Below, in pieces: positions 9,500 through 10,558 of a stretch of 64,000 nucleotides of DNA. The position numbers and the translations under genes are program-made. Below the pieces are notes generated by a model, which was not told the DNA's origin, did no database searches, and saw only the letters and a program-made list of their open reading frames with translations. Position 1 is the stretch's first letter, and the number at the start of each line of letters is the position of its first letter. This DNA is from Verrucomicrobia bacterium SCGC AAA164-E04 (GTDB taxonomy: Bacteria > Verrucomicrobiota > Verrucomicrobiia > Limisphaerales > AAA164-E04): the NCBI GenBank assembly GCA_000383715.1, contig KB912023.1, positions 42,381 to 106,380 of the forward strand, given 5' to 3'.

Positions 9500-10558
9500 A
9501 TGGAATCAAAAAAAACGCACAACACAGTCGCCCTGACCCAATGGTCTCATTGTGCAGGTTGAGCTGCTAAATTAGGTCCTGAAGACCTCGCTCAGGTTCT
9601 GAGCGATTTACCAGCCATCTCCGATCCGAATATTCTTGTAGGAACGCATACTTCGGATGACGCTGCCGTGTACCGCGTTAGCGACGAGCTTGCGATCATT
9701 CAAACGGTTGATTTCTTCACCCCTGTCGTGGACGATCCATATCTCTTCGGAGCGATAGCAGCCGCCAATGCGCTGAGTGATGTTTACGCCATGGGCGGTC
9801 GGCCCACCGTGGCCTTAAATGTCGTCGGCTTTCCCCGTAAAAATAAATCACTGCCTCTCTCAGTGCTCGCGGACATCCTGCGGGGGGGGGCTGACAAAGC
9901 AGCGGAAGCGGGTATTCAAATCGCAGGTGGTCACAGCATTGATGACAGCGAACCCAAGTATGGGCTGAGTGTCACCGGCTTTGTGCATCCCGATCAATAC
10001 TGGACGAACATCGGGGCTAAACCAGGGGATAAACTCATTCTCACGAAACCTATTGGTGTCGGTGTTGTCACGACTGCATTGAGAGCGGGTCACAAGGATA
10101 CTGACATTGAGCGGTCAGCCATCGATTCAATGGCTGCGCTCAATCGAAAGGCATCGGAAATTGGACAGCAGACGCAAGTGCGTGCATGCACCGATGTGAC
10201 CGGGTTTGGATTATTAGGGCATCTACGTGAAATGCTTGATGGGGTAAGTGGCCGTGTTCAGTTATCGAAAGTTCCCTTCCTAAAAGGGGTGCGCCAACTT
10301 GCTGAACTGGATTTTATCCCAGGGGGAACCCATCGGAATCTGGATGCGATCAAACGGTCTGTATATTTTGATGCTGCAATCGACGAAATCGATCAACTGC
10401 TGCTCTGCGATGCCCAGACTTCCGGAGGATTACTGTTCGCCGTTGAACCTGACAAAGCAGCATCTTTGCTCTACGAATTAACCTCAAACAATTTGCATGC
10501 AGCAGAGATTGGCGAATTTACTTCCGACGCCTCCAACAAAATTGAGATCATCCCTTGA
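9500..10558 (+). CDS. selD: Selenide, water dikinase (selenophosphate synthetase) SelD, selenocysteine-containing; TGA 9560-9562 read as Sec
   Basis: ORF 9668..10558 has SelD blocks ([66 protein letters not shown]). The same frame upstream reads ATG(9500) [32 protein letters not shown]. This aligns to E. coli LTQYSHGAGCGCKISPKVL with TGA on Cys17 and the Lys conserved. Confidence 0.85.
9574..9604 (+). promoter_or_regulatory. Candidate bacterial SECIS region (two small hairpins just 3' of the selD UGA)
   Basis: Hairpin 1: AGGTC-CTGAA-GACCT (9574-9588), starting 12 nt after the TGA. Hairpin 2: GCTCAG-GTT-CTGAGC (9590-9604). Both are read directly from the sequence; no energy calculation was done. 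Confidence 0.4.

Follow-up and report, generated by a model that had tools for sequence, protein, structure and literature searches.

The 64-kb stretch of DNA analyzed here, referred to as the window, contains a selD-like reading frame that is interrupted by a TGA at a codon of the catalytic loop. This raises the question of whether the gene starts downstream of this codon, has been inactivated by it, or reads it as selenocysteine (Sec). In our assessment, positions 9500-10558 of the forward strand very probably form one selD gene for a 352-residue enzyme, in which residue 21 of the catalytic loop would be Sec, specified by UGA 9560-9562 through a SECIS element. Among prokaryotic SelD genes, about 19% encode Sec, without exception at the position equivalent to Cys17 of the Escherichia coli protein (PMC4561486), and no bacterial selenoproteins are more widespread than SelD and FdhA (PMC5029168, PMC13188914). 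A Sec-type selD is an ordinary, already well-described kind of gene, and the present one leaves the knowledge of SelD and of Sec decoding unchanged. What it adds is a corrected gene product and a sign that an uncultured, marine-type lineage of the Verrucomicrobiae is likely to use selenocysteine.

The selD frame and its truncated calls

The gene (9500..10558, forward strand) lies in a single frame that runs from ATG 9500-9502 to a TGA stop at 10556-10558 and is open throughout except for TGA 9560-9562, the predicted Sec codon 21. The ATG is the sole ATG, GTG, or TTG in frame between the preceding stop and this TGA, and the Met is kept in relatives; the SelD alignment ends at the TGA at 10556-10558, which is the ordinary stop of the gene. 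For profile searches, the internal TGA was entered as Cys. The conceptual product of 352 residues (353 codons with the stop) scored 405.3 bits against the NCBIfam selD model TIGR00476 (cut-off 125) and 375.9 bits against NF002098 (cut-off 299), and it contains the Pfam domains AIRS (PF00586, residues 53-162, 99.5 bits) and AIRS_C (PF02769, residues 174-349, 74.8 bits). By its sequence, the gene is selD and encodes a predicted selenide, water dikinase (selenophosphate synthetase).

In alignments with proteins of solved structure, residues 7-339 match residues 3-333 of the E. coli SelD chain (3u0o; E = 7e-77), and residues 10-323 match Aquifex aeolicus SelD (2yye; E = 4e-68). Only when the TGA is read through does SHCAG-U21-AAK24 of the window stand opposite SHGAG-C17-GCK20 of 3u0o, which places the TGA on Cys17 and Lys24 (AAA 9569-9571) on Lys20. 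The first two bases (AA) of the Lys24 codon are invariant in 49 relatives (columns 10-11 of alignment A1), and all four ATP/metal-binding Asp motifs, DDAAVY, xDFF, SDxxAMGG, and TDVTGFG, are kept in comparison with both 3u0o and 2yye. An earlier note on this DNA had called the gene selD, a call borne out by NCBIfam scores far above the cut-offs. It had also read the frame and its peptide from ATG 9500 through TGA 9560-9562 exactly as found here, with the TGA on Cys17 and the essential Lys retained, and its remark that Sec-for-Cys variants of SelD were already known agrees with the literature (PMC4561486). Its product of 353 residues is one too long, as the stop codon had been counted.

The N-terminus is missing from the ORF list of the window, another point that the earlier note had raised correctly. 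The list contains only 9668..10558, a 296-residue product with a GTG start, and thereby loses the first 56 residues of SelD. This GTG (9668-9670, Val57), which is also the false start of most public calls, sits after the DDAAVY motif and inside the AIRS N-domain (profile position 7), so that the resulting product is devoid of the catalytic loop and of part of the ATP site. All public calls of the exact gene that we retrieved have 296 or 319 residues and no catalytic loop; the 296-residue calls P0121 and P0001 start at GTG 9668, and the 319-residue call MBT6236819.1 starts at CTG 9599. Truncated calls of the exact protein are found on at least 18 independent contigs, and the top protein-database matches to SelD nearly all have 296-333 residues. 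SelD is frequently misannotated (PMC13326102), and truncation of Sec-type selD is a routine annotation error. For the present gene, the right product has 352 residues, with Sec predicted at position 21, and replaces the 296- and 319-residue calls.

The agreement of gene finders and public databases on the shorter products can also be taken at face value. Translation would then begin solely at an internal start (GTG 9668 or CTG 9599) and yield a truncated SelD, or the gene would be a pseudogene with a nonsense mutation; that no Sec machinery is seen in the window (see below) would fit both versions. We consider this very unlikely. A protein starting at Val57 would begin within AIRS and have neither the Sec/Cys-Lys loop nor the Asp of DDAAVY, and in relatives with identities as low as 64%, the 20 codons upstream of the TGA and their Met are still kept as coding sequence. 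The TGA itself, moreover, is common to 59 loci from several phyla, as described in the following section.

Codon 21 in related loci

Relatives were collected by a scan of one genome per species, which yielded 80 loci, and the loop motif could be located in 70 of them. At the codon equivalent to Cys17, 59 of these loci carry TGA and 11 carry TGT or TGC, a frequency of TGA far beyond chance, and the TGA forms span several phyla. The closest loci of the scan are Verrucomicrobiota MAGs. Four of the relatives from this phylum, an uncultured member of the Verrucomicrobiae (L001, 98% identity), a Verrucomicrobiota MAG (L002, 77%), the closed genome CP170459.1 (L003, 74%), and Pedosphaera sp. (L005, 64%), all share the SHCAG-U-AAKL context and have a Met some 20 codons upstream of Sec. 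In this upstream stretch, they depart from the window largely through synonymous changes; of the 20 codons compared with L003, 9 carry synonymous changes alone, 7 are changed non-synonymously, and 4 are the same. Downstream of the TGA, identity to the Verrucomicrobiota relatives amounts to 64-98%. Coding sequence is thus conserved across species both before and after the UGA. As a finding that would speak against its reading, the earlier note had named orthologues that start near 9668 and have no conserved upstream frame; the relatives at 64-98% identity retain both the frame and the Met.

A sequencing or assembly error that turned TGC or TGT into TGA has a negligible probability. The same assembly does contain, about 2.9 kb downstream, what is probably a homopolymer error of one base, but an identical TGA is present in the independent assemblies of L001-L005 and in 54 further loci, and the truncated calls of the exact protein on separate contigs (see above) speak against an error as well. 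Since the TGA is common to 59 loci, the nearby homopolymer indel cannot account for it. Judging from the sequences, the UGA at 9560-9562 is almost certainly decoded as Sec, an insertion that we infer from this conservation pattern and from the RNA features described below.

The residues around codon 21 show some variation of their own. In the window, Cys18-Ala-Gly-Sec21 (9551-9562) forms a CxxU arrangement, which also occurs in all its Verrucomicrobiota relatives (L001-L005 and L034 listed), and Ala occupies the position of E. coli Cys19 in both the window and these relatives. Across the 59 Sec-type loci, a Cys is found at position -3 in 11, at -4 in 4, and at +2 in 11, while 33 have none. From this arrangement, a selenenylsulfide between Cys18 and Sec21 appears possible as a specific trait of the Verrucomicrobiota-type loop.

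RNA structure downstream of the TGA

In the minimum free energy (MFE) fold of the forward strand, two directly adjacent hairpins follow the UGA. Hairpin 1 (H1, 9574..9588) starts 11 nt after the UGA and has a 5-bp stem and the loop CUGAA; folded alone, it reaches -4.8 kcal/mol. Hairpin 2 (H2, 9589..9605) has a 7-bp stem and the apical loop GUU at 9596-9598, and its energy of -9.1 kcal/mol improves to -11.0 kcal/mol with an eighth pair, U9588-A9606. Together, the 61 nt from the UGA onward (9560-9620) fold with -21.8 kcal/mol (z = -3.3 versus dinucleotide shuffles). This stability differs with the type of codon 21: for the segment from +4 to +51, TGA loci have a mean MFE of -16.3 kcal/mol, compared with -9.4 kcal/mol for TGY loci (Mann-Whitney p = 5e-6), whereas a control segment at +154 shows no such difference (-7.7 versus -7.5 kcal/mol). 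Cys-type selD genes are without the downstream hairpins.

The pairing is also visible in an ungapped covariation alignment of 49 TGA-type sequences. Overall, 78.7% of the cells are paired, compared with 30-46% when the partners are slid, and none of 500 shuffles reaches the score. This covariation signal is carried by H2, in which 85.1% of the cells are paired (34-50% when slid) and the covariation score of 0.434 exceeds that of the controls (at most 0.196) and of all 500 shuffles; the covariation is clearest at its column pair 33-43, which appears as GC (21), CG (6), UA (5), AU (4), and UG (4). At the H2 positions of the 11 Cys-type loci, only 27% are paired. In its fixed register, H1 is 69.8% paired compared with 58.4% for the -1 slide, which is weakly above the controls. 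An H1 equivalent of the GGUCC/GGACC type is present in most TGA loci, with a register that shifts between clades; for this reason we call the H1 structure probable rather than established. It is possibly an auxiliary part of the SECIS.

A stem within a reading frame could be a by-product of the protein sequence. In 2000 synonymous resamplings based on the codon usage of the window itself, the native segment 9572-9607 folds better than 1984 of the variants (z = -2.7); for the wider segment 9563-9610 taken alone, the effect is not significant (z = -1.4, 190/2000 resamplings). Taken together, the TGY control, the covariation, and the resampling argue that the hairpin structure exceeds what the coding sequence would produce by itself. 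The reverse influence can be seen in the protein: the first base of codon 35 (9602-9604) co-varies with the synonymous wobble base of codon 31 (9590-9592; Ala31 or Ser31), and the residue encoded by codon 35 (Ser, Arg, Gly, or Cys) changes accordingly. The pairing of these two codons in H2 is a clear case of an RNA structure that constrains the protein sequence of Sec-type SelD. In a pseudogene, a hairpin that co-varies and is specific to TGA forms would be purposeless, which again speaks for an intact gene with a Sec codon.

We further compared the hairpins with the published bSECIS consensus, which demands a stem of 4-16 bp capped by a loop of 3-9 nt, a G within the first two loop positions, a distance of 16-37 nt between UGA and loop, and an MFE of at most -7.5 kcal/mol (PMC13188914). 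H2 satisfies all four constraints, with a GUU loop that begins with G and U, a distance of 33 nt, and 7-8 bp, whereas H1 of the window fails for want of a G in its first two loop bases. In a strict, perfect-stem version of the four-constraint test, 43 of the 59 TGA loci pass, compared with 0 of the 11 TGY loci, 15 of 234 other in-frame selD positions, 0 of 18 ordinary TGA stops of the window, and 0 of its 6 other read-through candidates. The passing TGA loci do so at H2 only (29), at H1 only (13), or at both (1), and lineages thus seem to differ in which hairpin bears the recognition loop. For the window, H2 is the best candidate for the SelB-binding SECIS hairpin. The earlier note had proposed a SECIS prediction as a check; with a hairpin that fits the consensus, co-varies, and is missing from Cys-type homologues, its Sec-SelD interpretation is supported. 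At the gathering threshold, Rfam gave no match in the whole window. A permissive Rfam scan of 9480-9700 returned a COG3860 RNA on the opposite strand at 17.5 bits (threshold 42.5), which is chance level and was discarded.

A mechanism consistent with these features would follow the established bacterial pathway, from which the contact between hairpin and SelB is adopted here. The mRNA directly 3' of the UGA would fold into a SECIS element, with H1 stacked directly 5' of H2 and the GUU-bearing H2 (9589-9605) as the likely SelB-binding stem-loop. SelB-GTP carrying Sec-tRNA(Sec) would bind this element and bring Sec to the UGA in competition with RF2. In the finished enzyme, Sec21 and Lys24, both in the flexible Gly-rich loop, would act with the ATP/metal-binding Asp residues to convert selenide and ATP to selenophosphate. 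As SelD makes the selenium donor that its own synthesis requires, the supply of selenium should affect its expression, as is already known for Sec-type SelD.

More speculatively, the SECIS of Sec-type selD may be bipartite, with the abutting H1 and H2 both acting in recoding and the recognition hairpin depending on the lineage. We regard this idea as tentative and somewhat doubtful. If true, H1 might, for instance, pause the ribosome or set its position, with H2 binding SelB, and the RNA would dictate whether residue 35 is Ser, Arg, Gly, or Cys through pairing with the wobble base of Ala31.

Sec machinery, gene context, and known systems

No tRNA gene, including tRNA-Sec, was detected by ARAGORN in the 64-kb window, and tblastn searches with clostridial SelA and SelB queries gave no selA or selB match in it at E <= 1e-3. 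Similarly, neither method found selA, selB, or tRNA-Sec within 6 kb of selD in L001-L005. Of the 80 loci, 17 have homologues of selA and/or selB at most 6 kb away from selD, none of them from Verrucomicrobiota, and ARAGORN placed a tRNA-SeC gene next to selD only in three loci from Clostridia. In these (L016, 8753-12260; L022, 8751-12263; L050, 6988-10472), selD is followed by selA, selB, and tRNA-SeC in one cluster, and the SelA and SelB queries were taken from these loci. For the present genome, the conserved TGA-specific SECIS and upstream frame suggest that selA, selB, and selC are located elsewhere. The reading as a Sec user predicts these three genes and probably further selenoproteins outside the window, and other TGA-split genes of the lineage warrant checking. 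Our literature searches yielded nothing on the Sec trait that refers to Verrucomicrobiota in particular.

That the machinery genes are not seen in the window would also fit a UGA that is read as a standard amino acid, either by genome-wide UGA-to-Trp reassignment or by near-cognate read-through with Trp or Cys. In its favor, UGA-to-Trp reassignment has been reported for some members of Verrucomicrobiota (PMC13462651). We nevertheless rate this explanation as most improbable. TGA ends 21 of the 42 open stretches of at least 200 codons in the window, including that of selD itself; it is the commonest ordinary stop there, from which it follows that the code is not reassigned, and codon 21 is the single credible internal TGA in 64 kb. 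The genome, with a G+C content of about 47% and large genes, is unlike reduced recoded genomes. At the site itself, homologues have Cys and never Trp, and the hairpin that fits the SECIS consensus occurs in TGA forms only.

A systematic search for ORF-TGA-ORF arrangements revealed neither a second selenoprotein gene nor a further credible Sec codon in the 64 kb. Its six other candidates were rejected, as they have no selenoprotein-like motif, SECIS-type hairpin, or family support; in the FGE-sulfatase gene, for example, read-through would add 26 codons that make no sense, and the candidates of the BamB-like and HemN-like type are genes that happen to lie in the same frame. Among the approximately 45 annotated ORFs of the window, there is no selU/ybbB, yqeB/C, or fdhA. 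The search yielded only a weak match to class-V aminotransferases (22641-23771) and a rhodanese-domain protein (46313-46993), neither of which adjoins selD. Scans for a sigma-70 promoter and an intrinsic terminator around selD performed no better than on shuffled sequences.

The remaining genes form a set that is typical for genomes of the Planctomycetes-Verrucomicrobia type, among them two sulfatases, an FGE-type sulfatase-modifying enzyme, a PSCyt1 cytochrome, a DUF1573-rhodanese-MauE/DoxX trio, and a 2149-residue LTD/CotH/PKD protein (listed jointly: 7798-9435, 21375-22523, and 42861-44198 on the reverse strand; 16762-18657, 45299-47469, and 49877-56326 on the forward strand). A 1370-residue ORF (37126-41238) has no Pfam match. 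Downstream of selD, a HemN-like radical-SAM gene (11891-13292) is split into ORFs of 200 and 236 residues in different frames, while its counterpart in L001 (98% identity) is one intact ORF of 466 residues (5657-7057). The sole indel between the two is an extra G in a G-run at about 12467-12472 (GGGGGG versus GGGAG), which is due either to an assembly error in the homopolymer or to a real frameshift. A segment of approximately 900 bp (2457-3362), flanked by folE2 and an ABC-transporter permease gene, contains no convincing ORF and has no Rfam match even at E <= 1; it could be a small gene missed by annotation, the remains of a decayed gene, or a non-coding element.

Compared with known systems, the closest protein of solved structure is E. 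coli SelD (3u0o, aligned over 333 residues), which shares the Cys17 and Lys20 positions and the ATP-site motifs. It differs by having Cys, encoded by TGY, at the site in question, by Cys19 at position +2, where the window has Ala, and by needing no SECIS. The A. aeolicus protein (2yye/2zod) shares two AIRS-type domains and the loop G-[U/C]-A-A-K-[LV]-G-P, but it comes from a different phylum, has only about 45-50% identity, and carries Ser-Ser-Gly before the Sec position in place of the His-Cys-Ala-Gly (CxxU) of the window. It is naturally a selenoprotein and was reportedly crystallized as a Sec-to-Cys variant.

Bacterial SelD selenoproteins catalogued by Selenoprofiles and BSepDB (PMC13326102, PMC4561486) agree with the window gene in the position of Sec and in the UAAKLGP context, and their SECIS likewise lies in the coding sequence directly 3' of the UGA; one such entry is that of Acetomicrobium mobile, with the sequence TSGUAAKLGPADL. 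In the BSepDB example, the canonical SECIS starts at the position of H1 (GGGUCCGGCGGACCU) (PMC13326102). The window and its Verrucomicrobiota relatives are different in this respect, as only H2 satisfies the consensus. The reference for bacterial SECIS elements is that of E. coli fdhF, the minimal form of which, according to the work of Bock and Engelberg-Kulka, reportedly begins 11 nt after the UGA. As in fdhF, a stem-loop directly follows the UGA within the reading frame and exposes G-U in a small apical loop, and H1 starts with the same spacing of 11 nt as the minimal fdhF element. The two elements nonetheless have no sequence similarity, and fdhF forms one long bulged stem, whereas the window has two adjacent short hairpins, with the GU loop 33 nt from the UGA and therefore close to the maximum distance within the range of 16-37 nt.
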